Below the pieces are notes generated by a model. That model did no database searches. It saw nothing but the letters and a program-made list of their open reading frames with translations, and was not told where the DNA came from. A stretch of 62,723 nt of DNA, the filler included, from Globobulimina sp. (lineage: Eukaryota): the NCBI GenBank assembly GCA_003354225.1. It is 10 parts of 10 records of this genome, joined end to end, with 100 filler letters (N's around TTAATTAATTAA, not from the genome) between each part and the next. Parts side by side here need not be neighbours in the genome. Positions count along the whole stretch, not along the records: positions 25,189 to 31,375 come from PIVH01000345.1; 9 more parts are not named here. One strand, 5' to 3'. The position numbers and the translations under genes are program-made. Positions within the stretch are counted from its first letter, which is position 1. Each line of letters begins with the position of its first letter. Shown piece by piece: positions 14,080 to 52,504 of the stretch.

Positions 14080-15984
14080 TCATGTAAGCCTGTTATTTCT
14101 TGCACAGCAGTCAGTGATTGCAGATACAATGTATGGATTTAATTTTTTATTTCCCTCCATTTCATTAAAAATAGTGATTGCTTCACTCATTGCACCAGAA
14201 TGACCGCATACATTCAGAACAATGCAATACATTTTCTCATCAATAACAATATCGCCATTATTTCTCAATGTTGTGAACAATTTTAATGCATTTTTAAAAT
14301 CATTCATTTTTGAATAGCAATCCATAATTACTGAGTAAATATTTTTATTTTTTTTAATATTAATATTATTAAATAATGTGATTGCTTCCTCAAACTGTCC
14401 ACATTTTGAATACATTGAAATCATCGCAGTCAACACATTAATATTTTGTAAATGGTGTTTATTTTCTCTTTGATTTAAAGTGTCAATAATTTTTAAGCCA
14501 TCACATAATAACAAGAGATTCCCGCAGCAATTCAAAGCAATACAATATGAAAAAGCATCACATTCATTCAGTTTATAAAATAATTGCAATGACTCGTAAC
14601 TCTGACTATTATTATTCAAAGCATTCATCATCGCATTACAATATGAAATATTTTTTGAATGTATGCTGTTAAACACTTTCAATGCTTTGTTAACATCACC
14701 ACTGACACCAAAAAAATCAATCAGAGTGGTTACTAATTCAATGCTATAATTGTTTAAATTATTTGTTATGTCAATATTTGAATCGATAAAATGAACACCT
14801 TTATTATGCTCAAAAATATTCAAACATGCTCTCAAATATAACACCTTCAATACATCAGCTTTGTTATTATTATTTTTATATTTATCATACAAGCTCAATG
14901 CTTCTGTGTTTCTATCGTTATTTATATAACATTTCATCATAACACTCAATGTCACATTATTTATTTCACCATCATTATCATCCGCTATTTTATTGAATAT
15001 ATTTGACGCATTGTTAACATTTGCAAACGTGCCATAAAAATCAATCATTGTATTCATTAATTCCATACTTTTTATCTTATCATTTATCATTTCGATTAAT
15101 TGCAATCCGACGTTATAATTCTTTTTATTTTCGCTCTTTGAACAAGCTTTTAAGAATAATAAATATGTGATATCATCATGTTGAATAAATGGATATTTTA
15201 AATATAAATCGATTGCCAGCTCATAACAATTCAAATTAATTAAATATTTCATCATTAACGAGATTAAAATTGTATTTATCACATTATCTGATAACGTATG
15301 AAAAACATTTAATGCTTTATTTGTCAGTTGTTTATTCCTACACAATTTAATATAAATTAGTTTTAAATTGTCATTATATTCCATTTTATTTTCATAGTGT
15401 TCAAATAAATAGATTGCGGATTTATGTTTTTTATGATAAATAAACGTTTTCAGCATTGTTTCAATCACAACAATATTCATTTTATTCTCCTTTATAGATT
15501 GGAATACTTTGAATGCATTATTTATATCCGTACATTGCGAATATAATGAAATTAAAGACATTTTGGCACAAATATTATTATCATCAATTGATTTATAAAT
15601 ATGATTCAAAAGTTTTTTTGTTTTATCAATATCAATTTTTATTAATTTTTTGCAACATTTGAGCAATAAAAACAATGAGACATTCTTTGTTTCAATAATA
15701 TCATTATACAAAGTTACTTGTAATATTTTATCAATTTGATTCATTTTCAAACAAAACACCAATAACTCATTTATTACACATTTATTTTTATTTCTTTTGT
15801 TTAAATTATTGTAAATAGCAAATGCAATCTCTATGTTATTTTCTTGATGTTTTGATAATGCTTTTATTTGAGATACAGCATCTTGATATTTTATTTTTGT
15901 TTTGTTATTTCTATACATGGATAATAATCGTTTGCTGTGACATAATAACCTATATTTACAATAAATGCATGAAGACATGATCAC
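14080..15984 (-). CDS. Pentatricopeptide repeat (PPR) protein, probably organelle-targeted
   Basis: 35-aa repeats such as TAMISMYSKCGQFEEAITLF, NTMIDFYGTFANVNNASNIF and YCIVLNVCGHSGAMSEAITIF. Confidence 0.88.
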   Translation of the reverse strand: MIMSSCIYCKYRLLCHSKRLLSMYRNNKTKIKYQDAVSQIKALSKHQENNIEIAFAIYNNLNKRNKNKCVINELLVFCLKMNQIDKILQVTLYNDIIETKNVSLFLLLKCCKKLIKIDIDKTKKLLNHIYKSIDDNNICAKMSLISLYSQCTDINNAFKVFQSIKENKMNIVVIETMLKTFIYHKKHKSAIYLFEHYENKMEYNDNLKLIYIKLCRNKQLTNKALNVFHTLSDNVINTILISLMMKYLINLNCYELAIDLYLKYPFIQHDDITYLLFLKACSKSENKKNYNVGLQLIEMINDKIKSMELMNTMIDFYGTFANVNNASNIFNKIADDNDGEINNVTLSVMMKCYINNDRNTEALSLYDKYKNNNNKADVLKVLYLRACLNIFEHNKGVHFIDSNIDITNNLNNYSIELVTTLIDFFGVSGDVNKALKVFNSIHSKNISYCNAMMNALNNNSQSYESLQLFYKLNECDAFSYCIALNCCGNLLLLCDGLKIIDTLNQRENKHHLQNINVLTAMISMYSKCGQFEEAITLFNNINIKKNKNIYSVIMDCYSKMNDFKNALKLFTTLRNNGDIVIDEKMYCIVLNVCGHSGAMSEAITIFNEMEGNKKLNPYIVSAITDCCARNNRLT

Positions 15985-25188: not shown

Positions 25189-25202
25189 GAATCGGGTTTC
25201 GG
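25189..25202 (+). repeat. 14-bp terminal redundancy (second copy at 31362-31375)
   Basis: GAATCGGGTTTCGG occurs at both contig ends. Confidence 0.92.
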
Positions 25203-25263
25203 TCCATTAGTTGTCTAGACCCGATACAGAGCACTGGTCAGGGGGACCTCGTCAGTAGACAAC
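25191..25263 (-). ncRNA. Hammerhead ribozyme with non-circularly permuted strand order
   Basis: Minus strand reads GTTGTCTA-CTGACGA-GGTCC-(18 nt)-ATCGGGT-C^TAGACAAC-TAAT-GGACC-GAA-ACCCGAT. Stems I (8 bp), II (5 bp) and III (7 bp) are all perfect; core CUGACGA/GAAA/GUC; predicted cleavage between 25218 and 25217. Confidence 0.88.
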
Positions 25264-25385
25264 CTGCCAGGCATCTTACCTATGTACTAAAAAACACTAA
25301 AAAACGGCATACTAATACGTTAGATAAAAATCTACTCTCAAAATATTGGGCAAAGTTTTTTATAAAAATTAAAATTAAAAATTAC

Positions 25386-25457
25386 TTCAATCTGTGTTGT
25401 TACCTCTTCATCTTCCTGTTCCTCTTCACGAGGTCGCTTGGTCTGTTCACGAGGCAT
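25386..25457 (-). CDS. Predicted first exon of ORF1 (MPREQTKRPREEEQEDEEVTTQIE)
   Basis: ATG at 25457; phase-0 donors at 25403 (AG|GTAACA) and 25385 (AA|GTAATT); matching phase-0 acceptor at 30433 across the junction. Confidence 0.55.
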
Positions 25458-25630
25458 ATTAAATAAACAAAAAAGACCCAAATAATAGAGAAAAATTAAA
25501 AATATTAAAATAAAAACTTTTTTTGTTTCTCGGCCCGAGTGCCTCAGCACCCGTACTTATTGGTCATGATCTGAAAACAATGGAAATTCTAATGACTGAT
25601 ATCTAGATATTTTTGACAAGTTATTATTTT

Positions 25631-25704
25631 AAGACCACTGACAAAAGTCAGCAATAAGACCACTGACAAAAGTCAGCAATAAAGACCACTAGCAAAGCCA
25701 GTAA
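25631..25704 (-). repeat. Hairpin repeat array 2 (3 copies, 25-26 bp period)
   Basis: Plus strand: AAGACC-ACTGAC-AAAA-GTCAGC twice, then AAGACC-ACTAGC-AAA-GCCAGT. Confidence 0.9.
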
Positions 25705-25852
25705 TAGATTTATGATATGTTAAAATTTTGAAGCATTAAATTTTGATTTGTTTTCAGTTCACGTAAATTTAGTATGATACTGAGACTTTTAATATTAGGA
25801 CCTTTCTTTATTGCAAATTTACTAATTTACGTTGCACCTTAACAACGCCTTG

Positions 25853-28800
25853 TTAGGCAATATGAGAAATACAGAAGTTGGCAATTTTTTGTTTATTATC
25901 CAGTTTAAATTTTAGCAATAATGTACTATAAATGGTAGCAAATTTGTAGAAGGTATGATATAAGCTAGCTTTATTATATCCGTTTTTAAGCAAGGTATGT
26001 ATCAGCTGTCCAACCCTTGGTGAAAAATCGTTAAAATTATTGCAAATTCTAGCAATTCTTATTAATTGTGTATAGAAGACCTTGTATCCCATAGATGTAT
26101 GTACATTGCTGTTTGCAAATCCATATCTAACCACATGGAAATTGAAGTCATCCGTTTTGTTATATACTGCTATTCTATGTTTACCAGGGTTAACACACAC
26201 CAATATATCAAGAAAACAACTTTCATATTTTGACTTAGCTGTATTTTCAAGTGGTAAGCAGTTTGGATAAATAAGCTTAGCATATTCTAGGAATTTATCA
26301 CAATTAATTGAAAGAATATCATCTATATACCTAATTGTATGACTAATTGATTTGGCTATAGTTTTGTTATTAATGTCTGTGAGAAAATCGTATTCCAGCA
26401 TACTTAACACAAGGTCTGCAATCAAAGGACTAGCATTACCGCCCATAGGTACACCACATATTTGTTTAAATAAGAACCCAGCAAATTTGACGTACGTTTC
26501 ATCAATAACATTATTAATAAGGCATTTAATGTCAATGTTGTCTAGCATTGCTATGTAATTGCTTTTGACTTGATCAGCATAATATACATTATTATAAGTA
26601 ACAATTACATATTTTTTATTAGAATGTCCAAATAGTAAATCCACAAGTTTGAACAACTGTTTTTTAATAATTTCATGTGGAAACATTGTATATAAAGCAC
26701 TAAAATCTGCAGTACATATGCTTTGCAGTTGATTAGCTTGCACTTTATGTTCTATTTTTCTATGTGCTTCCAAACTACCTTTAATTGACCAGTAACAGCT
26801 ATGCCCTTTCCTTTTGCTAACTGTGCCACAATATTTTTCGAAATGTTGTTGAAAATGTGCTAAAACTCGATGTAATATTATAGACATTGGTTTAGTTGAT
26901 GAATTACGAGCACCTGCTATAAATCGGAATTTGTATGGATTTTTATGTAATTTGGGTGTTGCGAATATAACAGGAAGGTTTTCGTCCTCTGTTTCGAATT
27001 TGATAAGTCCTGTTTGTGCTGTTAGAAGTTTGTGTTTATCAATAAGTTTATTTTCATCAATGTCACAAGGTTTATAGACATCATTGCCAACTACAGTACA
27101 AGTTCCATTATTATCAATATTGACACCAAGTTCTTTACACATAATTTCAATATAATATTTTTTACAAATAAATATGAAATTATTGCTTGCTTTATCTGCT
27201 GGTGCAATGACAAACTCCTTCTGTAAACGTAGCAATTCCATTTGACTTTCTTCTTGTGACAAACAAGAAACCATTCTTGTATTTCTTATATTCATTGACA
27301 GAAATTTGATTCTATTATCGACAATATTTGCATAAAGCTTTATGTATTCCTCTGTAGCCAAGGTAATGTCAACATATCTTCGAATTTTTGCATATGTCTT
27401 CTTGATATATTCGTCAACGACTTCCATTGCCACTTTTCTAACTTCAGTCCAATCAAATGTTTTCGGCTCTCGAAACTTGGCTCCCTTACCAAAAAGTTTT
27501 CTGAGTTTTATATCTTTAATTATATTTAAATCACCTGTAATAACATGTCCACATTGACTATAGACAAATTTAGATGTTGTACAATTACAGTGGTTATTTG
27601 CAAAATTATTTAATTCATTATTTTGCAATGTTTTAAGTGTTTTATTATAATTAAACAATTTACGACTAATAGGTGTTTCATATTTATATGTGATAATGGG
27701 TACATCTGATTTTTTATTATTAATGGAAATTCTTTTTCGTAATCTTCGGTCCTTGAAAATGGTTTCTAATTTCAGAAGTTCAATACCCTTATTTGGATAT
27801 CTAGCAACTACAATAATGCCTTTAGATTTATTGATAGTTTTATTGTTACAACCATAATATCCCGCCATATATGCTTGTGTTGCAAGTTTTGCATCTCCAT
27901 GCCAATGATCCAGGTTACCAGATTGTATGGTTTGATTAAGGAACAGTAAATTCTTTTTCGACAAAGATCGTAAGAATATATATAATTTCCGTCTATCAAA
28001 CAAGCCATCTGAACAGTCAATGTTACGTTTTGTTTTATTGATGATATCAGGATCAAGTTTCTTTGCTGTTCGCTTCTTTTTTCTATTTCTATTTCGTCTA
28101 GTAGATGGTAATGGTTTAGTAAAATATGGTTGTGTTGATTTGGATGCAGGGTCAATTCCACATGATACATCTCCATAGCACTTGATTCTATCATTCATAC
28201 CATAAGGAAAAGCTGTATTTAGTTGCCGAATCCAAAAATCTTCAACATTTTCACATTCCTTTCTATTTTTAGTTTTATCTGTAGATATAGGTATAGTTTC
28301 TATAATCTGCACTTGTAGATCGTTAACATTATGCCCAGTTTTATTAAAATGTTGAACTAAGTAAGTATTAGTTTCATTTTTCTTAATAGAATAAACATGT
28401 TCAGCAATTCTTTCTTTGAGTTTTCTAATAGTTTGCCCCACATATTGTAATTTACATTTTTGGCATGTGATAAGATATACTACATTTTTTGTGTTACAAT
28501 TTAATTGAACTTGATCTGTGCATGCTGTATATTTACTATTAGTAATAGTGCTATTTATATGTTGTTTTTCTTTGACATATTTACAGCAACTGCATCTATT
28601 TCCGCAGCATTTTTCTGTGTAATTACCAGTTGTATTATTATCATATATTTTAGCAGTAAAAGTAATTTTATTATTTTGATCAGTTTGTTTTGTGTATATA
28701 AAACGTGCTCCTTCCAGAAATCTTCTTGGATGACTAGAAACACTCAGCCCATCCCACATAGCATGTGCTCCGGCACCACTGTGAAATGAAGATGGTGTTA

Positions 28801-28870
28801 CAGAGGGTTCGCCCCCGGTGATTTTACAACCCATCCGGGGAAACGGGCGGGTCTCTAATTGTACTTCCAT
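25853..28870 (-). CDS. PLE ORF2: N-terminal GIY-YIG endonuclease plus reverse transcriptase (Naiad-like)
   Basis: EN: CCGNRCSCC, KNVVYLITCQKCKLQYVGQT, RIAEH, EDFWIRQLNTAFPYGMN. Linker: CNC..GHVITGDL, KGAKFREP. RT: PADKASNN, PKLHKNPYKFRFIA, DFSALYT, GVPMGG, RYIDD, FLDI, YNKTDDF. Intact 1005 codons; the true start is uncertain. Confidence 0.95.
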   Translation of the reverse strand: MEVQLETRPFPRMGCKITGGEPSVTPSSFHSGAGAHAMWDGLSVSSHPRRFLEGARFIYTKQTDQNNKITFTAKIYDNNTTGNYTEKCCGNRCSCCKYVKEKQHINSTITNSKYTACTDQVQLNCNTKNVVYLITCQKCKLQYVGQTIRKLKERIAEHVYSIKKNETNTYLVQHFNKTGHNVNDLQVQIIETIPISTDKTKNRKECENVEDFWIRQLNTAFPYGMNDRIKCYGDVSCGIDPASKSTQPYFTKPLPSTRRNRNRKKKRTAKKLDPDIINKTKRNIDCSDGLFDRRKLYIFLRSLSKKNLLFLNQTIQSGNLDHWHGDAKLATQAYMAGYYGCNNKTINKSKGIIVVARYPNKGIELLKLETIFKDRRLRKRISINNKKSDVPIITYKYETPISRKLFNYNKTLKTLQNNELNNFANNHCNCTTSKFVYSQCGHVITGDLNIIKDIKLRKLFGKGAKFREPKTFDWTEVRKVAMEVVDEYIKKTYAKIRRYVDITLATEEYIKLYANIVDNRIKFLSMNIRNTRMVSCLSQEESQMELLRLQKEFVIAPADKASNNFIFICKKYYIEIMCKELGVNIDNNGTCTVVGNDVYKPCDIDENKLIDKHKLLTAQTGLIKFETEDENLPVIFATPKLHKNPYKFRFIAGARNSSTKPMSIILHRVLAHFQQHFEKYCGTVSKRKGHSCYWSIKGSLEAHRKIEHKVQANQLQSICTADFSALYTMFPHEIIKKQLFKLVDLLFGHSNKKYVIVTYNNVYYADQVKSNYIAMLDNIDIKCLINNVIDETYVKFAGFLFKQICGVPMGGNASPLIADLVLSMLEYDFLTDINNKTIAKSISHTIRYIDDILSINCDKFLEYAKLIYPNCLPLENTAKSKYESCFLDILVCVNPGKHRIAVYNKTDDFNFHVVRYGFANSNVHTSMGYKVFYTQLIRIARICNNFNDFSPRVGQLIHTLLKNGYNKASLYHTFYKFATIYSTLLLKFKLDNKQKIANFCISHIA

Positions 28871-28891
28871 GATTGAAGATGAAATGAAACT

Positions 28892-28965
28892 GTCAAGATG
28901 AATGAAACCATATATTGGTCTTGAGTCAAGATGAATGAAACCAAATATTGGACTTGTGTAAGATG
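28892..28965. repeat. About 33-bp tandem duplication GTCAAGATGAATGAAACCA(T/A)ATATTGG(T/A)CTTG
   Basis: Two near-identical copies plus a partial third, just 5' of ORF2. Confidence 0.8.
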
Positions 28966-29177
28966 TTGAAGTATACTGATAGAAAGAAACTATGTGTATT
29001 AGACAAATTATAAGACTAGATGTCAGTAATAAATGTTTACTGACTCCAAGTATTATTCTATTTACTACGGAAGGAGAAGATACTTAAACATTATTTTTAT
29101 AATGCATGGTATGAATTGAATGTACATATGAATATGTGTGGAAATAAATGTAGTGTTAAATAAGATTGTAAACAATA

Positions 29178-29450
29178 ATAAGAACCACTGTCATATGACA
29201 GTAACCGGACTATATCATTAGCCAGAAAATAAGACCACTGTCATAAGACAGCAATAGGATAATATCATATGCCAAAACATTGGACCAATATCAGAAGTTA
29301 GTAATATTGCCACTATCATAAGATAGTAAATAAGACCACTGTCAAAAGACAGCAAAAGAGTAATATAATATGCCAGAACATTAGACCACTGACCATAAAT
29401 AAGACCACTGTCATAAGACAGTAAATAAGACCACTGTCAAAAGACAGTAA
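29178..29450 (-). repeat. Hairpin repeat array 1 (about 8 hairpin units interspersed with a second ~25-nt unit)
   Basis: Stems at 29187, 29237, 29312, 29338, 29407 and 29433 (ACTGTC-N4-GACAG[T/C], ACTATC-ATAA-GATAGT) plus degenerate copies; spacer unit G(G/A)NTA(A)TAT(C/A)AT(A)TGCCAGAA(C/A)AT three times. Confidence 0.9.
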
Positions 29451-29796
29451 ATGAACTATTGTAAAACCAATAAAATGTAATGAAATTCGAAGCAGATGAA
29501 TAGACACTTATTTGAAGATGTGAAATTATTTGATTTCAATGCAGATGTTAGTTTCTGGAAGGTTGAATGTATAAAAGAAAAAATCAAAAAAGAAAATCCA
29601 AAAAATTATTTTGTCGACGAAACTGGAAAGTACGATGAAAATTGGATGATTGCGAAATAGTTACAGTATCCTATGTTAACCATTGGCCCTGATATTTGTG
29701 ATAAGCAGGGGTCTTGAAACGAAAATATTGGCGAAAAATTTAAATTTTTTCACCAACATTTAATAACACGCATCAAAACCTAAATTTATCACAATA

Positions 29797-30432
29797 TCAC
29801 TCATTTGTAGAAGGGGCCGTTTCTGGTTTTCCATAGTCGATTGGGTTGGAAGGAAAATCTTTGTAGTGCTTAGCAGGAAGATCTCCTATGGCCATCTTGT
29901 TATATCCTATGAATTTTGCCTTAAATCCAGCATTTTTGTATGCTTCAACAACAGCATTTCTCTTTTTCTTTTCTTGTTGCTCCTTGAATGGTAAATCATT
30001 TTGTACGGAGACATTTTTATACTTTTGACCTAATCCTTGACATGGTGCCCAATGATGAAGATTTTTCTTAAGAGACATAATAAAACCACGATCCGATCGA
30101 CGAGTGAATGCAACTATGAACCCAACTGGAAGCTCATGAATGATGTCGACATGTGTGAGGATTTGATCAACTATATCTGGATCCATTCGAAGACCATCGA
30201 CACAGAGAAAGCGAAAAACTGATTCATAATCATTTTTGGTGATCTTGTTTTCTTTGAAAAGATGATCTTTATCAAGACCAAAAATACGAATATTATGTCC
30301 CCTGGTGACTTTTTCAAGACCATGTATAAGTTGATCGTGTTTTTCTTGTATTTGATGTACATCCTTGACTTCGGTTTTAAGTCGTTTAATCTCCTGTTCG
30401 AGTTTGTCAATGCGTTTCGTATTCATTGAAAC
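29797..30432 (-). CDS. ORF1p-like protein (coiled coil, RRM, CTD; LINE L1/CR1 ORF1 type), main exon
   Basis: Heptad N-terminus, then LEKVTRGHNIRIFGL (compare LE..SR..N(I/L)RI.G(I/L)), FIVAF and VSVQNDLP..Q..KK. Preceded by a branch-like TACTAAA and a TCTTCCAG acceptor (AG at 30434-30433). Confidence 0.75.
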   Translation of the reverse strand, partial: VSMNTKRIDKLEQEIKRLKTEVKDVHQIQEKHDQLIHGLEKVTRGHNIRIFGLDKDHLFKENKITKNDYESVFRFLCVDGLRMDPDIVDQILTHVDIIHELPVGFIVAFTRRSDRGFIMSLKKNLHHWAPCQGLGQKYKNVSVQNDLPFKEQQEKKKRNAVVEAYKNAGFKAKFIGYNKMAIGDLPAKHYKDFPSNPIDYGKPETAPSTNE

Positions 30433-31475
30433 CTGGAAGATTTAGTAAATGGTTTTTATTATGGATATTATGTAAAAACAAGTGTATAAGATAATTTTAA
30501 GTTGCAGCAATGTATATAAAAAGCAATGTTTGTAATAGTGGAAAAGTACTAATTACTATATGCCAATGTATGTATTGTATAGAACGAAAATTTTGTTTTG
30601 TACAGTAAATATGATTAAGAGTATAACTAAAATGGTACTTTTAATATATGGAATTTTAACTTGTATTGTGTATTTACTAATGGTATTAGGGACTATGTAT
30701 GAGTTAATGTGGTATGAACTATATGTTGTAGAGTATGGTACCAGTCTTGAATGGTATGATGCAGGTAACGACTATATAGTTATTGAATTTTATATAAAAT
30801 TGAAGCAAAGTTGTTATTTTTATTATTTTTAAATTGAAATGTATGGATTATAATTATGTAACACTAAATGTAGAAGTATTAATAAATATTAATTATAAAA
30901 TTGAGAGAATTGAAGAATTTTGATAGGTGAAAAAGTTTATTATATTTTAATTTGATATGAGTGAGTAAAATAAGATTGTTACTGCATAGTATAAATAGTA
31001 AAGATCATCCACCCTTGTTAGGGTCGAATTTCTATACTATTTTTTCAAAAATTTTTTGTTTTTATATTATTATAATATATGTACAATTTTAAGCAAACCA
31101 AATTTGGTAACGAAAAATAGCTGCTTGACAGCCAATAGGTAATAATGATAGATTGTATGTGAACTAGGGAACTTTTAGAATAAGATAATTTGTTTAACAG
31201 CGAAAAGCTAGCTAGTTACCTTGGAGCGGGCAGGCCTCTCCTCACAAGGACCAGCTAGTAGATGTAATAAAATTATATTAAATGAAAAACAAATAAAAAG
31301 GCCGTATTATAAACAGTAAAGGAAATCTGTCCCTGTACCTAAGGCAATTCTACTCCTATCTGAATCGGGTTTCGGNNNNNNNNNNNNNNNNNNNNNNNNN
31401 NNNNNNNNNNNNNNNNNNNTTAATTAATTAANNNNNNNNNNNNNNNNNNNNNNNNNNNNNNNNNNNNNNNNNNNN

Positions 31476-34020
31476 ACGGGATGGTCGCCCGTCACCATAA
31501 TCACTTTGATACCGGCCGATTGACAGCGGCTCACTGCTTCCGGCACGCCGGGGCGCGGCGGATCGATCATGGCGTATAAGCCTATAAACACTAAGCCTTC
31601 TTCCTCGTGGTTGCGGTTAAAGGGCCAGGTCAGTTCCTCTGCCTTGGTGCCACTGAACGTGTACGGCCCTTTCAATAAATGTATCAAACTGCCGCGTTTG
31701 ATGCCGACTTCCAAGAACGAGTTGTCCGGCTCGATCATGCCGAAGTCGCTGAAGCCAATACGTTGCGTCGCCATTGGCATATTGCGCAATTCCGCCTCGA
31801 TGGCCGCATGTAAATGGCGAATAAATAACTTCTCAAATGGGATTTTCTCGCCTTCGTCGTCCGTCGCATTCAACATGATTTTGATCTTTTCGCCTTCGTA
31901 CGCCACGATCACCGCATCTTCGTTGGCCTCGGCGCACGATTCGTCCACTTCGTCGTCATACTTCTGCTCGATGACAGGTTCCATGATGTTGACGTCGTAA
32001 ATGGTGGCATCCAACACCAACTCCGCCAACGCCAACACACGTTCGCCGCGCGCACCTAACGACATCACGCCGTTCAAGACGGTGTCGCGAACCTCGTCGG
32101 TGAGGTCAATCACCTCATCGTCAAACAAATAGCGATCGCATAATTCCAAAATGCGTTCCGGAGCGCCTTTCATTTGCACGAAACAGCGCCTTTCTTTGTC
32201 GCCGTCGTCATAGCCATCGATCTTCACTTCGTTCTCTAATAACATATCCTTCGGCAACTCGTGCACCGACACTTGCCATTTGTTGGTGGAATTGAAGGGA
32301 ATCTCGTGTAATTTGACGTGCTTCGTGCGGGATTCTGGTATATTGATACGATACTCAGCCACGACATGGCCCGCAGAGAACTTCACCATGGCCGCTTCCG
32401 TGGCATTCGCCGTGGGGTCCACTGCCCCGTCGATGAAACCTGCGTTGTTACACAAGGCGCCGCAACGAACCAATTTGAGGAAATCGTTATGGCGCACTTT
32501 GGCATTATCCTTCTTATAAAAATCGCCCAATAACGCGGCCTGCGGATTGTCCGTGTCACACTCGCACTCTTTCAGGTTGTAATAAACGTGCTGACACGTC
32601 ATCACATTGGTGGTCAACGTGCCCGTTTTGTCGCTGCAAATCACCGACGTACTGCCCAGCGTCTCCACGCTCTCCAGATTCTTGACTCGCACATTCTTAT
32701 CAAACATGCGTCGCGCCGTCAAGGTCAGCGACACCGTCACCGTCGCCAACAGCCCCTCGGGCACATTGGCCACAATGATGCCAATCAAAAAGATGACATT
32801 GCGGATGAACGGCGTCTCGTTCACGAAAAAGCCGATGGCGAAGAAGGAGACCCCAAAAGCGATGGCGATGGCCGACACTTTGATCACGAAGTCCTTGATC
32901 TCCTTCGCAATGGGCGTGTCTTCGCCCTCCGTGCTGGCCGCCAACTGGGCCGTGCGTCCCATGAATGTGTTGTCGCCCGTCGCGATTGTAACGCCTCGGC
33001 CCTTGCCGTTGATGATCAACGTGCCGAAGAACAACAAGTTGGACGCCTCGCGAGGGATATCGTCACAAGCTTTATTGTCGCGTTTGCACGGTTCAGACTC
33101 GCCGGTCAATGACGAATTGTCCACTTCCAAATCGGGCGTGGCGGAGATTACGCGAATATCGGCCGGGATGGCCATACCGAGAGTCAACTCGCATATGTCA
33201 CCGGGTACCAATTCGCGAGGATCGATGGATCTTTTGTACCCGTCGCGAGTCACGATCACGTTGGACGGCTTCATGGAGGATAAGGAACCCATCAAATCCG
33301 CAGATTTGCTCTCTTGATAGAACTCGAACGAGCCGGATAAGGTCACCACGCCGGACAGCACGAAGCCTAAATACAAGTTGGTGATGTCGGAGCTGTCGAT
33401 GCCGTACGAGAACCAGCACAAAACGGCTCCGCCCCAGAGCAGGATGTTGAAAAAGCCACCAAATACAGATTTGAGATAGCGCAGCCAGACTGGGTCGTGC
33501 TTGGGAGGGGTCAGTTCGTTGTAGCCGAGCAAGAGGAGCTTCTCCTGGACTGCTGCGGTGGTTAGGCCTTCGGTCAAATGGGTCGAATATTCTATTTCTA
33601 ACTCATCCAATTCTAAGGTATGGGCGACGGTCGTGTAGGCTTTTTTGAGTTCGAGAACGCCCTGTTTTTTGGAGATGCGACCTTTGGCCACACGGCGTTG
33701 CACACTGTCTTTGGCCATAGATTCGCGATGCTTTAAGGCCTCAGCGGCGATGGTGATGCTGCTGGTTCTGCGGTCGATGGAGCGACCGCCAGAGCTTCGA
33801 TATGATTTGAATTGGCCTTGCTGGTTTGGTGGCGGGTTAGAAATTGCATGGTGTATTGTTGTATTTTTATATTAGGGATACGTACGTGGGACGGATGTAA
33901 TAATGGTGTTTTCATGCCGCCTCTGCTGTGTGACGTCATTTGAGCGCCTGCAAGCCGTTTATCCATTGCCTCGAGAGCGCCTGATTGTGCAGAAGCAAAG
34001 CTTGTATCTTCTTCCGACAT
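31476..34020 (-). CDS. P-type ATPase IIC (Na+/K+- or H+/K+-ATPase alpha-like), 3'-truncated
   Basis: ATG at 34020; intron 33885..33821 (phase 0). Motifs VDNSSLTGESEP, IVANVPEGLL, CSDKTGTLT, FNSTNKWQ, MKGAPE, GERVL, IDPPR, MVTGDHP. Confidence 0.95.
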
Positions 34021-34154: not shown

Positions 34155-36449
34155 TTAAAGTTTGCTTTTTTGAGTAAAACCATGATTTAATAAAAGATGG
34201 GAAAATGCAACCAACAAAATTGTATAATAAGATGCTCCAAATACTTGATACATTTGCTTTGTTGATTTTGTTAATTGCTCAGTTGCGATATTTTTGCAAC
34301 ATGTAATAGCGCCGCAATCATTGATAATTTTAATAATATTCCTAAGTTCATCCAAATTATTCCCATCACATTTTTTAATTCTTGTCCATAAATTAATTTT
34401 ATCGTTTTTATTTTTAATCAATTTCATTGCATATAATATAGGAAAAGTTACCTTCGATTCAATTATATCTTCACCAATATTTTTTGACAATTTATTTTTG
34501 TTATCACCGATCATAAATACGCCCAATAAATTTTTAACGTCGTCAATAATTTGAAAAGAAGTGCCTAAATTTTCAAAATAATTAGCTATACATTTAAGTT
34601 CATTCTGTGTGATATCAGGTTTTGACGATATTGCTCCAATACATGCTCCGCATGACGCCGGTATTCCTGTTTTAAGGCTGTGTATTTGCTGTAATCTGTT
34701 TATTGCTAAATCTACATTTTCCATACGCATATCGTTAGCATTGCAGATACCATCCATCATATAATCCAAAGTAACACAATCTAATGTTTGTCCAATCCAC
34801 GCTCCTCTATAACAACGAAACACTTGTTGGTAAATCAAATATTGTTGTTTTTCAGATAAATTGTTATCTCTTAGAATAAACTCAGACAAATTAAATGCAG
34901 CATTACCACAATTTATTGCAGTGTTGAGATCATATTTGATATGAACGCATTCTGTGCCTCTTCGAGTTGATGAGTTATCCTGAATGTCATCGATGATTAA
35001 TGAGCCAACATGGGGCAATTCCTGCAATGCAATCAATTGTTGTAAAAAGGTTTGTGTTGGATTCCATTTATTGTTTGCAATATTTCCCGATATAATACAA
35101 CCAAAAGATCGCCATCCTTTTCCTTTCTGTTTTATTAATTCAATGGCGGGGTTTAATAAATTTTTATGCAATACTTTAATATCCAAATCATTATAATCTG
35201 TACATTCAAATCCCGGCAATGTCATCAATTTTGCCAAATGTTTATGATTACCAGCAAAATCATCTATTTTTGGATAAATTGAATGAACCGCAATGTTACA
35301 TAAATAATCTGAAATATTTTTCATTATTTTCGTTTCATTGAAAGAATCAAACAACTTTTTAGAGAATATTTTATAAAATCCTCTTCCATTCATATCGCCA
35401 GCAACATTTATTGGTGATAACCACATTATTTTTTGTAATGAAATATCAACAATTTCACAGTTTATTAATTTATCAAAAACATGTTTTATATTTAATTTTA
35501 ATGGTTTCATACCCATTGCAATACCGTGTATTTCTAATATTAAGTCTGTGTGATATTTATTAAATGTTTTGCTTGATACAAATAATTCTTCCTCTTTTGT
35601 TTCAAACGATATATTATAATTATTCTTGTCAATAATATGTTGAATACCATTGCTGTCAACAAATATTAAATTATTTGAACTGCACTGAATTTCAATGTTA
35701 TTATCCAACTGTAATTGAATAAATATACTATTAACATTGGAAATGTTTGAAATGGATTCTATTTTATGATCATAGCATCCCTTATTATTGCTGTTATCCA
35801 TTATTTTTATTATTTCATCATTTATGTCAATGCTACCAAATATTGCTAAATTTGTAACACTGTATTGATCATTTTGATGTATTATATGAATATTTCCGTT
35901 TTGATATGGTTTAAACATTAAATTGCAATCTACGGCATCATTATCTTTATCTTTGTCTTGATATAATTTGGTATTGATTGTAACGCAATAATTACCATTA
36001 AAGTCCTTTGTTAATATATTTTGATCAATTTGAATAAATAATTTATCATCGCCAAATTTGGTATCATTAATTGCTAAAATATCTGGTTTTGGTATAATTC
36101 CGTGTTTAAGAAAATTTTCATATTCCTTTTCGAAAAATGATTTACTGTTCTTTTTGTTTGATATTCTGTCATATTCTGTTTTTGCAAATCTTTTATCCAA
36201 TACACAATAATAATGCATTTTTTGTTTTGTTTTATCATACAATGATATTTTCATTGAATGCACATATTTAGAATCATTGTATTTATTTGATTCAATTTTA
36301 AATCGAGAAAAACAAATAAAGATTGAGAAATTACTAATTTGTGAATTTGCAAAATTTGTGCATTTACCATCAAAATGACCAGTAAAATACCAACATTCTA
36401 AATTTGATGATTTCTGAGGCAAATCACGTTTAATTAAACCGAAAGGCAT
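34155..36449 (-). CDS. Fusion: N-terminal CrtC/AttH (lipocalin-like) domain plus trans-isoprenyl diphosphate synthase (GGPPS-like)
   Basis: Likely ATG at 36449 (MPFGLIKRDLP). LECWYFTGH resembles the EWWY motif. C-terminal half has GKGWRS, SLIIDDIQDNSSTRRG (FARM), GQTLD, KTG and FQIIDDVKN (SARM). Confidence 0.85.
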   Translation of the reverse strand: MPFGLIKRDLPQKSSNLECWYFTGHFDGKCTNFANSQISNFSIFICFSRFKIESNKYNDSKYVHSMKISLYDKTKQKMHYYCVLDKRFAKTEYDRISNKKNSKSFFEKEYENFLKHGIIPKPDILAINDTKFGDDKLFIQIDQNILTKDFNGNYCVTINTKLYQDKDKDNDAVDCNLMFKPYQNGNIHIIHQNDQYSVTNLAIFGSIDINDEIIKIMDNSNNKGCYDHKIESISNISNVNSIFIQLQLDNNIEIQCSSNNLIFVDSNGIQHIIDKNNYNISFETKEEELFVSSKTFNKYHTDLILEIHGIAMGMKPLKLNIKHVFDKLINCEIVDISLQKIMWLSPINVAGDMNGRGFYKIFSKKLFDSFNETKIMKNISDYLCNIAVHSIYPKIDDFAGNHKHLAKLMTLPGFECTDYNDLDIKVLHKNLLNPAIELIKQKGKGWRSFGCIISGNIANNKWNPTQTFLQQLIALQELPHVGSLIIDDIQDNSSTRRGTECVHIKYDLNTAINCGNAAFNLSEFILRDNNLSEKQQYLIYQQVFRCYRGAWIGQTLDCVTLDYMMDGICNANDMRMENVDLAINRLQQIHSLKTGIPASCGACIGAISSKPDITQNELKCIANYFENLGTSFQIIDDVKNLLGVFMIGDNKNKLSKNIGEDIIESKVTFPILYAMKLIKNKNDKINLWTRIKKCDGNNLDELRNIIKIINDCGAITCCKNIATEQLTKSTKQMYQVFGASYYTILLVAFSHLLLNHGFTQKSKL

Positions 36450-36526
36450 TGTTGCTGGGAACGTTATTTTCCGGAAATTTCCAGTTTTCAATCCACCTTT
36501 GTTATTGTAAAAAATCTGTACTGAAC

Positions 36527-37487
36527 ATGTCAAACATACTAAAAAGGTTATTGCTGTTTTATTACATCTCAAGGGATCATGTAATAAAGGGATCATTTAT
36601 AGCATTTGTAGGATTTAATTTTATTGCATACATGTTAACAAATGATATCAGTGTAGTTATAGATAATTGGAGTATTGGCACAATGTATATGTTTGCCAAT
36701 GCTGCAGTACAATCACAAAATCAATTACAAGATCATCAATCAGATAAAGTAAATAAACGTATGTTTTTTTTAAAATAATATGTTTTTAATTCGGACTTAT
36801 TCGGTTTTTAATATACAATTTATAGCTTATCTACCTCTCCCAAACAAAGAAATAAGCAGAAGAAATTTAAAATTATTTAGCGCATTTTGCTATGCAATCT
36901 CTTTTTTAGTTGCTTTGGGTTATTATGGTATCAATACAATCCAAGCAAAACGAGGGATTTCTCTTATTATTTTAGCCACAGTCTATTCAAAAATACCGTT
37001 TACAACATTTAATCTCAAACAAATCCCCATTGTAAATTCGGTTGTAATTGTTATTTGTCGTTGTTTTATTTATCACAGAGCATTGATTGACGAATTTGAG
37101 CAAAGAAATCCTTCAGAAGATAGCAAGAAAATCATGTATTCATTTTTTTGGATGCATTTATATAATGTGATTGCAGTATGTTTATATAAGGATGTTCCGG
37201 ATATTGAAGGTGATCAGAATGTGGATAAAATTTTAACTTTGCCGATGATTTTAGGTAAAAATATTAGCTGTGGATTATCAACTACTTTGTTGGTAATATC
37301 TGTCTATATTTGTCAATTCAACAATATTTATTTTACTGTTATTGCATCAATTTTTATCATACAACATGTAACCAATCATTATTCAGGAAATTATAAAAGT
37401 GCGTATCTTCAAATTTGGACATTTTATGATGTGTCAATGATTTTATTTTTTATTGACGTGTATATGAACACCATTTTTCTGACATAA
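36527..37487 (+). CDS. UbiA-family prenyltransferase, homogentisate prenyltransferase (HPT/HST)-like
   Basis: ATG at 36527. Removing intron 36759..36825 gives NQLQDHQSDKVNKPYLPL; second Asp motif KDVPDIEGD; multiple TM helices. Confidence 0.88.
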
Positions 37488-51031: not shown

Positions 51032-52504
51032 TTACACTGAAACACAACGATATTTGTGAATATTATTCCAATGTATTTTTTGATGTGATTTACTGCAATA
51101 CCATTCTTTTTTACATTTGCCACAACATTTCAAAATAATATTTGTACCATGACACCATGCACATTGTTTCTGATCAAAATGAACATATTTCCGTGCAGCA
51201 ACACCCGTATTTAACAGTAATTTAATATCTTTGCGTTTCAACCGAGGACTGAATGATTTCAAATATAGTGCAAACTTGTTATCTCCATAGATTTTATGTA
51301 TTGCACCAAATTTTAATATTTTGGCAATCAGAGCAATTGTTTTATTATGCCATTTTGATTTTTTTTTATTGCTTAAAATTTTACATAACACAGCAATAAC
51401 TCCATGATGTCCCATATATATTATTGCATGATCAATATCGCAAAATGTTTTCAAACGATACAATGTATCTTGTATTATAACATTATTATTACTCAATAAC
51501 TCTTTGATTAATATGCGATAAAAAAATAATTCGAGATATCCAACGCTATGAATACTCTCAGAAAATATAATTTTAAACACGCCATTGTATGCCATTTGTC
51601 TGCTTTGTAGATTTGATGATGTTAAAGAAGTTAGAAACGATTTTGAAATGATTGGATATTTGGCTAAGTTAAAAACACAGTCAGATTGATGAGCAGATAT
51701 AAAGCAGCAAACAGCATTTAATGCAGCATCAATTACATGTTGATCCTCAGGATATAATTTCAGAAAATAAGTAAGATTATCGACTGCAACTGCACAATCT
51801 CCCAAATAGCTAAGACACAAATCAACGATATCATAATCACAATGAGATATACCAGCATCACGGCAAAAACTCAGGCATATAATGACACTCTTACTTCCTT
51901 TGTAAATAAACATGTATCGATATAGATTATAATATGTATTAGAAACAAGTATTGCAACTCCGGGATCATTATTAATTCGAATCAAAATATCCAATAATCC
52001 CAATATCTGCATTTTATATGAAAATTCAGTCATATTATACTTCCATGTAAGTGCTTCCAAAGCCGATACGATGCGTCGAGTCAAAATAGTATCATTTATA
52101 TGGCAATCACTACGCAATAAATGTTCTAAATGGTTTAGAATCTGATAATGATCCAATAATATATCTCTCATAACTAACGACTCGAGAGCTATATTGCATA
52201 TTATATCGAGTGCCTTTATTTTAATCCAATTGGATCCGGATTTTGATGACAATTTCTGAATAACCAGAGGAATTATATCATATTCGATTATTGAGGCTAT
52301 ATGTTTCTTTTGATATGATTTTGATAATCTAACCAATGCATTCATGCATAAAACCAGTAATTCTTCATTTTCTGGCGGTGGTGTTTCTGTTTGAATTAGT
52401 ATGTTTACACTTTGCTGAATTGCTCCGGAATTCAATAATGTATCAATTGATTTATATAACAAAACAGATTTTATCATTTGCAATTTTTGGTTTGATGAAG
52501 ACAT
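51032..52504 (-). CDS. Armadillo-like repeat protein with a C-terminal MYND zinc finger
   Basis: CAWC..CCGKCKKEWYCSKSHQKIHWNNIHKYRC; helical ARM-like repeats. Confidence 0.85.
   Translation of the reverse strand: MSSSNQKLQMIKSVLLYKSIDTLLNSGAIQQSVNILIQTETPPPENEELLVLCMNALVRLSKSYQKKHIASIIEYDIIPLVIQKLSSKSGSNWIKIKALDIICNIALESLVMRDILLDHYQILNHLEHLLRSDCHINDTILTRRIVSALEALTWKYNMTEFSYKMQILGLLDILIRINNDPGVAILVSNTYYNLYRYMFIYKGSKSVIICLSFCRDAGISHCDYDIVDLCLSYLGDCAVAVDNLTYFLKLYPEDQHVIDAALNAVCCFISAHQSDCVFNLAKYPIISKSFLTSLTSSNLQSRQMAYNGVFKIIFSESIHSVGYLELFFYRILIKELLSNNNVIIQDTLYRLKTFCDIDHAIIYMGHHGVIAVLCKILSNKKKSKWHNKTIALIAKILKFGAIHKIYGDNKFALYLKSFSPRLKRKDIKLLLNTGVAARKYVHFDQKQCAWCHGTNIILKCCGKCKKEWYCSKSHQKIHWNNIHKYRCVSV

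Follow-up and report, generated by a model that had tools for sequence, protein, structure and literature searches.

Can a hammerhead whose strands stand in an order found in none of the classical types be a genuine ribozyme, and to what kind of element would it belong? The question is raised by a locus in a 62,723-base stretch of the Globobulimina sp. assembly GCA_003354225.1 (the window), where a retroelement on the minus strand of contig PIVH01000345.1 carries such a motif at 25263-25191. It is quite probable that the motif is a type-CSG hammerhead and a conserved part of a lineage of Naiad-like Penelope-like elements (PLEs) with an N-terminal GIY-YIG endonuclease. The rare type CSG is itself already known; what is new is its home in a retrotransposon and a much better supported set of members. 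Two articles serve as the main points of comparison, on permuted hammerheads (Eckert, Friedrich, Weinberg & Weinberg 2023, Nucleic Acids Res, PMC10085705) and on Naiads (Craig, Yushenova, Rodriguez & Arkhipova 2021, Mol Biol Evol, PMC8557442), and statements about either refer to the parts of its text that were available.

Architecture of the motif

Hammerheads are divided by Eckert et al. into three blocks, C, G and S, and natural non-circular permutations of these blocks have been described (PMC10085705). On the minus strand at 25263-25191 the CUGACGA block comes first, the cleavage-site block second and the GAAA block last. The first-pass annotation had described this as an A-C-B order belonging to none of types I-III, and both the sequence and the descriptor introduced below agree. 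A circular order (CGS, GSC or SCG, with a nested three-way junction; Rfam clan CL00010) is not what is found; the order is C-S-G, and by it the motif is assigned to type CSG of Eckert et al. 2023, an arrangement that already has a name. Because the strand order is none of the circular orders of types I, II and III, each of helices I, II and III crosses the other two, forming pseudoknots. The components of the motif, in the order in which they are transcribed, are as follows.

25265-25276, minus strand: helix IV 5' strand, just upstream of stem I; RNA duplex prediction, 11 pairs with 25240-25228
25256-25263, minus strand: stem I 5' strand (I-a); pairs with 25217-25210 throughout (8 standard pairs)
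25249-25255, minus strand: core CUGACGA (block C); CUGANGA kept in 8 of 8 intact copies
25244-25248, minus strand: stem II 5' strand (II-a); forms 5 pairs with 25205-25201, beginning with G-C as in 8 of 8 copies
25226-25243, minus strand: 18-nt linker from stem II to stem III; 25240-25228 forms the helix IV 3' strand
25219-25225, minus strand: stem III 5' strand (III-b), ending G16.2 U16.1; 7 pairs with 25197-25191
25218, minus strand: C17, with the cut predicted 3' of it (25218/25217) by analogy with the hammerhead core
25210-25217, minus strand: stem I 3' strand (I-b); pairs with I-a
25206-25209, minus strand: 4-nt tie UAAU from distal stem I to distal stem II, read from the sequence; 2-6 nt in 8 copies
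25201-25205, minus strand: stem II 3' strand (II-b); pairs with II-a
25191-25200, minus strand: core GAAA (25200-25197) and stem III 3' strand (III-a, 25197-25191); CGAAAC invariant in 8 copies

The core is intact, and the three helices of 8, 5 and 7 bp consist entirely of standard pairs when checked by script, in keeping with the three perfect helices reported earlier. A ninth stem I pair (G-U, 25264/25209) is possible. The pseudoknot with a short linker between stems I and II, likewise proposed earlier, was recovered with a tie of 3-4 nt. The cleavage triplet is GUC at 25220-25218, an NUH triplet with stem I directly after it, and A25197 pairs with U25219 as the A15.1-U16.1 pair. The spacer from CUGACGA to GAAA is 48 nt, and a cut at the predicted site would leave fragments of 46 and 27 nt between I-a and III-a. 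The bounds of 25191-25263 given in the first-pass annotation hold for the three strands and overlook helix IV (25276-25265 with 25240-25228), which places the start about 13 nt further upstream.

Rfam reports no match anywhere in the window at gathering thresholds. The only match in E-value mode is a partial one to Hammerhead_3 (RF00008, type III) at 25191-25225, which scores 12.7 bits against a cut-off of 48.5 bits and comes from the site/GAAA half only. The standard models therefore miss the motif, as had been anticipated.

Homologous motifs in related loci

Related loci were collected with protein alignment and comprise 80 metagenome loci and 17 contigs from assemblies of metagenome-assembled genomes (MAGs); viral contigs scanned in the same way yielded no relatives. 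Together with the window contig, these 97 loci form a set of 98 sequences (404 kb), which was searched on both strands with a descriptor accepting all six block orders. The descriptor specified CUGANGA, GAAA and UH, with helices I-III built of uninterrupted standard pairs counted from the core (minima of 4, 3 and 3 bp and a total of at least 14), no more than one extra base beside the core, and a span of at most 110 nt.

Seven compact matches were obtained, in the window and in L002, L003, L004, L081, L082 and L086, and all seven have the order CSG and lie on the sense strand of the ORF (open reading frame). Among 20 mononucleotide shuffles the mean number of matches per data set was 0.2 for CGS, 0.15 for SGC, 0.1 for CSG and 0.05 each for SCG and GSC, or 0.55 for all orders together. 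Chance is excluded as the source of the motif, since seven matches, every one CSG, stand against a shuffle mean of 0.1. A hammerhead of canonical order was found in none of the 98 sequences scanned with the descriptor. Five loci have the motif 610-1080 nt downstream of where the ORF2 match ends; L086 has it 2.1 kb upstream of the ORF2 match, as expected if this copy belongs to the tandem unit before.

The five MAG assemblies containing L081, L082, L083, L086 and L093 were also searched by pattern. This gave 21 matches, four of which pass the helix test: three known copies and a new one, L118, on a 731-bp contig. The same search in five further MAG assemblies gave 19 matches and none that pass. 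In both searches a control pattern read backwards produced raw match numbers similar to those of the real pattern. Counting two copies with insertions (L001 and L083, described below), the collection stands at eight intact and two interrupted copies. The CSG order recurs in seven other independent assemblies with differing helix sequences, and the intact copies span 63-81 nt, or 85 nt in L118 if helix III is extended across a U-U mismatch.

Looser descriptors (a wider span, one mismatch in a helix or the core, or a total of at least 12 bp) returned extra matches at about the shuffle rate, often within ORFs or antisense. None of these was counted, and a match on the minus strand of L064 was treated as chance.

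Conservation, covariation and a fourth helix

A MAFFT alignment of seven motifs misaligned the site and GAAA blocks, and core-anchored pair tables were used in its place. The core letters CUGANGA, GAAA and UH are kept exactly in all eight intact copies, with H17 a C in seven and an A in one; L081 has a 1-nt insertion after the core. Three pairs are invariant across the eight copies (G10.1-C11.1, A15.1-U16.1 and C15.2-G16.2), and each of the other positions of helices I-III takes two to five standard pair types, with no non-pairs within the descriptor lengths. The helices exceed the descriptor minima, reaching 8, 6 and 12 bp, and stem III varies from 4 to 12 bp. The comparison of homologues that the first-pass annotation had called for was thereby made, and all three helices are kept through compensatory changes. 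The motif is kept against a diverged background, since the non-coding regions of the closest pairs (L002/L082, L003/L081 and L031/L004) fail to align: their untranslated regions (UTRs) are unalignable and their coding parts align at 65-67% identity. The motif is real and under selection.

Helix IV, which is not part of the descriptor, adds a separate line of evidence. In all eight intact copies the stretch immediately upstream of I-a pairs with the beginning of the linker after II-a, and in the window this helix comprises 11 pairs with three single-base bulges. Predicted energies of cognate flank/linker duplexes average -16.3 kcal/mol, compared with -6.4 kcal/mol for 56 non-cognate combinations, and none of 5000 random re-assignments reached the observed cognate mean. 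Compared copy by copy with shuffled linkers, helix IV clearly beats chance in five of seven copies (0-9 of 500 shuffles as good); in L086, where 68 of 500 shuffled linkers pair as well, it does not go beyond chance. At the level of the family, the helix that brings stems I and II together in type CSG is present as helix IV.

Distribution within the Naiad-like elements

A FastTree phylogeny was built from 86 sequences of the reverse transcriptase (RT) half, with 12 loci omitted for a short ORF or fewer than 300 aligned residues. All seven scan matches fall in one clade of 14 rows with a support of 99. Two further members of this clade carry interrupted copies. L001 has all blocks and helices, with 57 nt plus a repeated site/I-b copy between stem I and stem II. 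L083 also has all blocks and helices, including a helix IV of 10 bp, and a 30-nt insertion of two hairpins between CUGAUGA and II-a, which breaks the rule of type CSG that blocks are uninterrupted; insertions next to the core are said to be absent from known hammerheads (PMC10085705). Two more rows of the clade, L028 and L085, have almost no flanking sequence.

The sequence of the two interrupted copies holds some details of its own. In L001:3389-3512 the cleavage triplet and I-b occur twice, 45 nt apart, with a matching stem III for the first only. In L083:4925-5045 one of the insertion hairpins duplicates the ribozyme's own stem I sequence, and the insertion may hint at the way in which such rearrangements come about.

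A different Naiad-like lineage holds a possible hammerhead of type SGC, at L027:3342-3400 and identically at L084:3342-3400, with site, GAAA and CUGAUGA in that order and helices of 6, 3 and 4 bp. It lies 430 nt downstream of the ORF, and the two loci, 99% identical, are one element seen twice. This candidate is a possible lead only, being a single sequence with 13 bp of pairing in all, near the chance rate.

Integrity of the locus and tandem arrangement

The window is composed of ten unrelated contigs of 6159-6199 bp each, placed in order of decreasing size and joined by N44-TTAATTAATTAA-N44 linkers. The motif sits at the very end of one of them, the fifth (25189-31375, 6187 bp), on its low-coordinate side, a position that calls for caution. 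The first and last 14 bases of this contig are identical (25189-25202 and 31362-31375, repeat D20), and contigs of two public runs, X1 and X3, bridge the junction from 31361 to 25189. X3 is an independent marine metagenome run, represented by a Logan contig, and X1 is probably the source sample. From the end repeat and from the X1 and X3 contigs that join 31361 to 25189, it follows that the contig is one 6173-bp unit of a head-to-tail array or circle, and the contig end leaves the motif whole, as the sequence continues at 31361.

25189-31375, minus strand: whole contig, one 6173-bp unit, tandem or circular; end repeat D20 and X1/X3 junction contigs

A shuffling of strands by local misassembly, which had been named as a possible refutation, was checked and is unlikely: the X3 contig, which also crosses the junction, covers 25189-25287 with the same strand order and a single difference, at 25232 in the linker. 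A divergent copy in X1 has three single-base indels (at 25210, at 25233 and after 25238), the latter two within the 18-nt linker, and its core bases are untouched.

The retroelement carrying the motif

In the element the motif follows ORF2 downstream, at a distance of about 590 nt, and shares its sense strand. Its placement on the sense strand of a retroelement, as first described, is borne out, with both ORFs on the minus strand.

25853-28870, minus strand: ORF2, 1005 aa, N-terminal GIY-YIG endonuclease and reverse transcriptase; Pfam and residue conservation
29797-30426, minus strand: ORF1, 209 aa, no Pfam family; ORF call and Pfam

In ORF2 the Pfam GIY-YIG domain is found at residues 129-219 with 28 bits, above the cut-off, and RVT_1 at residues 643-853 with 21.1 bits, below the Pfam cut-off of 29.6 bits. 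All 70 related proteins that were found come from metagenome or MAG assemblies; the best has 40% identity, and 58 reach E<=1e-63. An alignment of 40 homologues shows no variation at C428 and C430 (a CxC motif) or at D559 and K560, and conservation of A561 is at least 90%, giving DKA and not DKG. A CCHH pattern lies inside the GIY-YIG domain, with C..C and H..H around the YLITC stretch of ORF2. Naiads are distinguished, according to Craig et al. 2021 (PMC8557442), by an N-terminal GIY-YIG domain that has cysteine motifs, by CxC and by a DKA that replaces DKG. Classed by domain order and these motifs, the element appears to be a Naiad-like PLE; the tree described above comprises metagenome and MAG relatives only. 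The first-pass annotation was right to name a PLE, though the element is of the Naiad-like kind with an N-terminal endonuclease and not a canonical PLE.

The element also contains short repeats. Arrays of about 25 nt with a 75-nt higher-order unit, spaced 50-101 nt around a short palindrome (families D1 and D2), occupy 25608-25721 in the 3' UTR and 29163-29483 between ORF1 and ORF2. A 33-nt tandem duplication (D3, 91% identical, 28892-28957) stands just upstream of the ORF2 start codon.

Among the 70 homologues, nine proteins of 962-1329 aa (P0020, P0021, P0025, P0026, P0028, P0040, P0045, P0046 and P0048) have a precomputed match to PF00443 (ubiquitin carboxyl-terminal hydrolase), and two of these also match GIY-YIG. 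The matches suggest the fusion of a protease domain in some Naiad-like elements. All 17 MAG-assembly loci (L081-L097) have this eukaryote-type retrotransposon ORF yet come from assemblies whose labels say bacterial MAG or isolate, with several loci in one MAG, and these contigs are probably mis-binned eukaryotic DNA.

Relation to known hammerheads and Penelope-like elements

Canonical PLE hammerheads, as Cervera & de la Pena (2014) and Lunse et al. (2017) are said to describe them, are of type I, have a minimal stem III and act as dimers. The motif resembles these in that its core lies in the non-coding repeat region of a tandem PLE and that it has the same presumed role in processing a long transcript. 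Unlike them, with their canonical order and a stem III of 1-2 bp, it has a permuted order, a stem III of 7 bp and all parts present for a single molecule.

The closest published relatives are the two RNAs of type CSG. As recounted in the available text, type CSG comprised 'two similar sequences' (named CSG-1 and CSG-2) found 'exclusively in metagenomes (i.e. in DNA)' with 'modest covariation', and a host or genetic context is absent from that description (PMC10085705), so that this was formerly the weakest-supported natural non-circular permutation of an RNA. The first-pass annotation had noted that rearranged hammerheads are rare; they are indeed very rare, and this arrangement was already named and published. 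Compared by description and not by sequence, the motif shares with CSG-1 and CSG-2 the block order, the intact core, three mutually crossing stems, a direct tie between stems I and II, an extra helix and a source in metagenome DNA. The fragments of 46 and 27 nt expected here are likewise close to the published products of 48-49 and 29 nt, which include flanks. Both type-CSG RNAs cleaved in vitro where expected, at rates (kobs) of 0.004 and 0.026 per min and as single transcripts, and a helix ties stems I and II (PMC10085705). The difference is that type CSG is represented here by eight intact and two interrupted copies with varied helix sequences, all of them inside retrotransposons.

Type SGC (the HRIMA-1 motif and variants, PMC10085705) is a circular permutation of CSG and belongs to the same family of non-circular orders, with a similarly short tie between stems I and II (about 3 nt in SGC) and a fourth helix. 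It differs in block order and in that it comes almost only from metatranscriptomes and is linked to circular RNAs with hairpin ribozymes.

Naiads, described from invertebrates, are reported in the available text to 'lack canonical HHR', and eight 'HHR_half_core' cases with core halves 35-50 nt apart were left uninterpreted (PMC8557442). The element examined here agrees with that account in its N-terminal GIY-YIG domain and cysteine motifs, CxC, DKA, tandem arrangement and absence of a canonical hammerhead, and the 48 nt between CUGANGA and GAAA fall inside the range given for the half cores. In contrast to the published account, the 'half cores' of one lineage resolve here into complete permuted ribozymes. 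The statement that Naiad-type PLEs lack hammerheads is qualified accordingly: at least one lineage carries a form invisible to Rfam and to standard descriptors. It is a tentative idea, and on balance a doubtful one, that CSG (and perhaps SGC) hammerheads are the 'missing' ribozymes of PLEs with an N-terminal endonuclease in general, the 'HHR_half_core' cases and the orphan CSG-1 and CSG-2 being the same thing.

A link between permuted hammerheads and Penelope-like or Naiad elements was not found in the literature, in a search that left most subscription journals uncovered and that such a link may have escaped by standing in the supplements of PMC8557442 or PMC10085705. In the available text of Eckert et al., Penelope occurs only inside the title of one cited paper (PMC10085705). 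The locus and its relatives give type CSG a genetic home in a retrotransposon lineage, suggest a plausible job for it, and supply independent covariation in four helices. Ribozyme searches in mobile elements should allow all six block orders.

Proposed fold and role

The fold is most likely best described, on the basis of predicted pairing, as two adjacent hairpins formed by minus-strand RNA from about 25276 to 25191. Helix IV would close a loop that holds I-a, CUGACGA and II-a, and helix III a second loop that holds C17, I-b, the 4-nt tie, II-b and GAA. The two loops would then dock through helices I and II, rebuilding an ordinary hammerhead core. The short tie and helix IV would hold stems I and II side by side, taking the place of the loop-loop contact of ordinary hammerheads.

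Self-cleavage after C25218 would produce a 2',3'-cyclic phosphate, with the 5'-OH on U25217. Given the head-to-tail arrangement of the element, read-through transcripts cut at each copy would yield unit-length RNA of 6173 nt. Its 5' end would carry I-b, II-b, GAAA and III-a, and its 3' end helix IV, I-a, the CUGACGA core, II-a and III-b. The two ends could re-pair through about 20 bp, and ligation into a circle, as in retrozymes, is conceivable.

Several observations count against this reading of the motif. Cleavage by the window copy, action in cis and a role in RNA processing are inferred, as is the proposal of the first-pass annotation that the ribozyme defines the end of the transposition RNA; no RNA run was found to contain the sequence, and the in vitro rates reported for type CSG are slow (PMC10085705). 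The absence of non-pairs is partly built in, as helices I-III are defined by contiguous pairing; support independent of that definition comes from the excess over shuffles, the constant strand and position, the helix lengths, the clustering on the tree and helix IV. Helix IV of the window is by itself not significant, with 104 of 500 shuffled linkers pairing as well, and one of its pairs would be lost with the X3 variant at 25232. The motif is missing from two members of the clade, L031 (830 nt of 3' flank) and L062 (1203 nt), and L093 has no more than a degenerate version, in a search of these three loci for the site/GAAA hairpin. Outside the clade none of the 72 tree rows has a compact match of at least 14 bp, so the motif is not general to Naiad-like elements. 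Misfolding could also compete. The best nested fold of the window RNA, with other pairings, is predicted at -29.6 kcal/mol, and a rough sum for the pseudoknotted fold gives -16.2 (helices IV and III) plus -8.6 and -7.1 kcal/mol for helices I and II as isolated duplexes, about as stable as the nested fold. Because the two values are similar, the active fold is plausible and not obviously dominant.

Alternative explanations

The division of the fold into two hairpins, joined only through the loop-loop helices I and II, raises the prospect that the hairpins act as modules between molecules or tandem copies, the CUGANGA hairpin of one docking on the site/GAAA hairpin of another for cleavage in trans or as a dimer. 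A tandem element would provide several copies per transcript, and variants of the PLE hammerhead reportedly cleave as dimers, to go by the title of Lunse et al. 2017. Such an arrangement is nonetheless unlikely: the two modules are adjacent on one strand, within the 63-81 nt noted above (or the extended 85 nt of L118), in all eight intact copies, and stem III, at 4-12 bp, is long compared with the 1-2 bp of dimeric PLE motifs. The published type-CSG RNAs, moreover, cleaved as single transcripts (PMC10085705).

That the fold is instead kept for a non-catalytic use, such as a structure for recognition or priming by the reverse transcriptase, with cleavage weak or irrelevant in vivo, is an improbable account. 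The role of hammerheads in PLEs is described as unresolved in the available text (PMC8557442), the slow type-CSG rates (PMC10085705) would suit such a use, and L083 keeps all of its helices despite the 30-nt insertion next to the core. Against it stands the pattern of conservation, in which core nucleotides are exact in eight of eight intact copies and the helices vary freely, as selection for catalysis predicts. It is highly improbable that the motif is what decay or shuffling has left of an ordinary hammerhead, that it matches by chance or that it is an assembly artefact of the contig end, for although it abuts the end of a short contig in a fragmented assembly and its site/GAAA part resembles a degenerate type III motif (12.7 bits), such readings are already contradicted by the homologues in seven other independent assemblies, by the 0.1 matches expected from shuffles, by the contig of the independent run across motif and junction, and by the finding of a canonical-order hammerhead in 0 of 98 sequences. 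A type-CSG hammerhead belonging to a Naiad-like lineage is thus the reading preferred here.

Other contigs of the window

The remaining contigs of the window hold long uninterrupted ORFs. Several, of 600-1550 aa, are without a Pfam family, and others have domains of eukaryote type: PPR repeats at 14080-15984, a P-type ATPase at 31476-33718, a polyprenyl synthetase at 34155-36596 and zf-MYND at 51032-52504.
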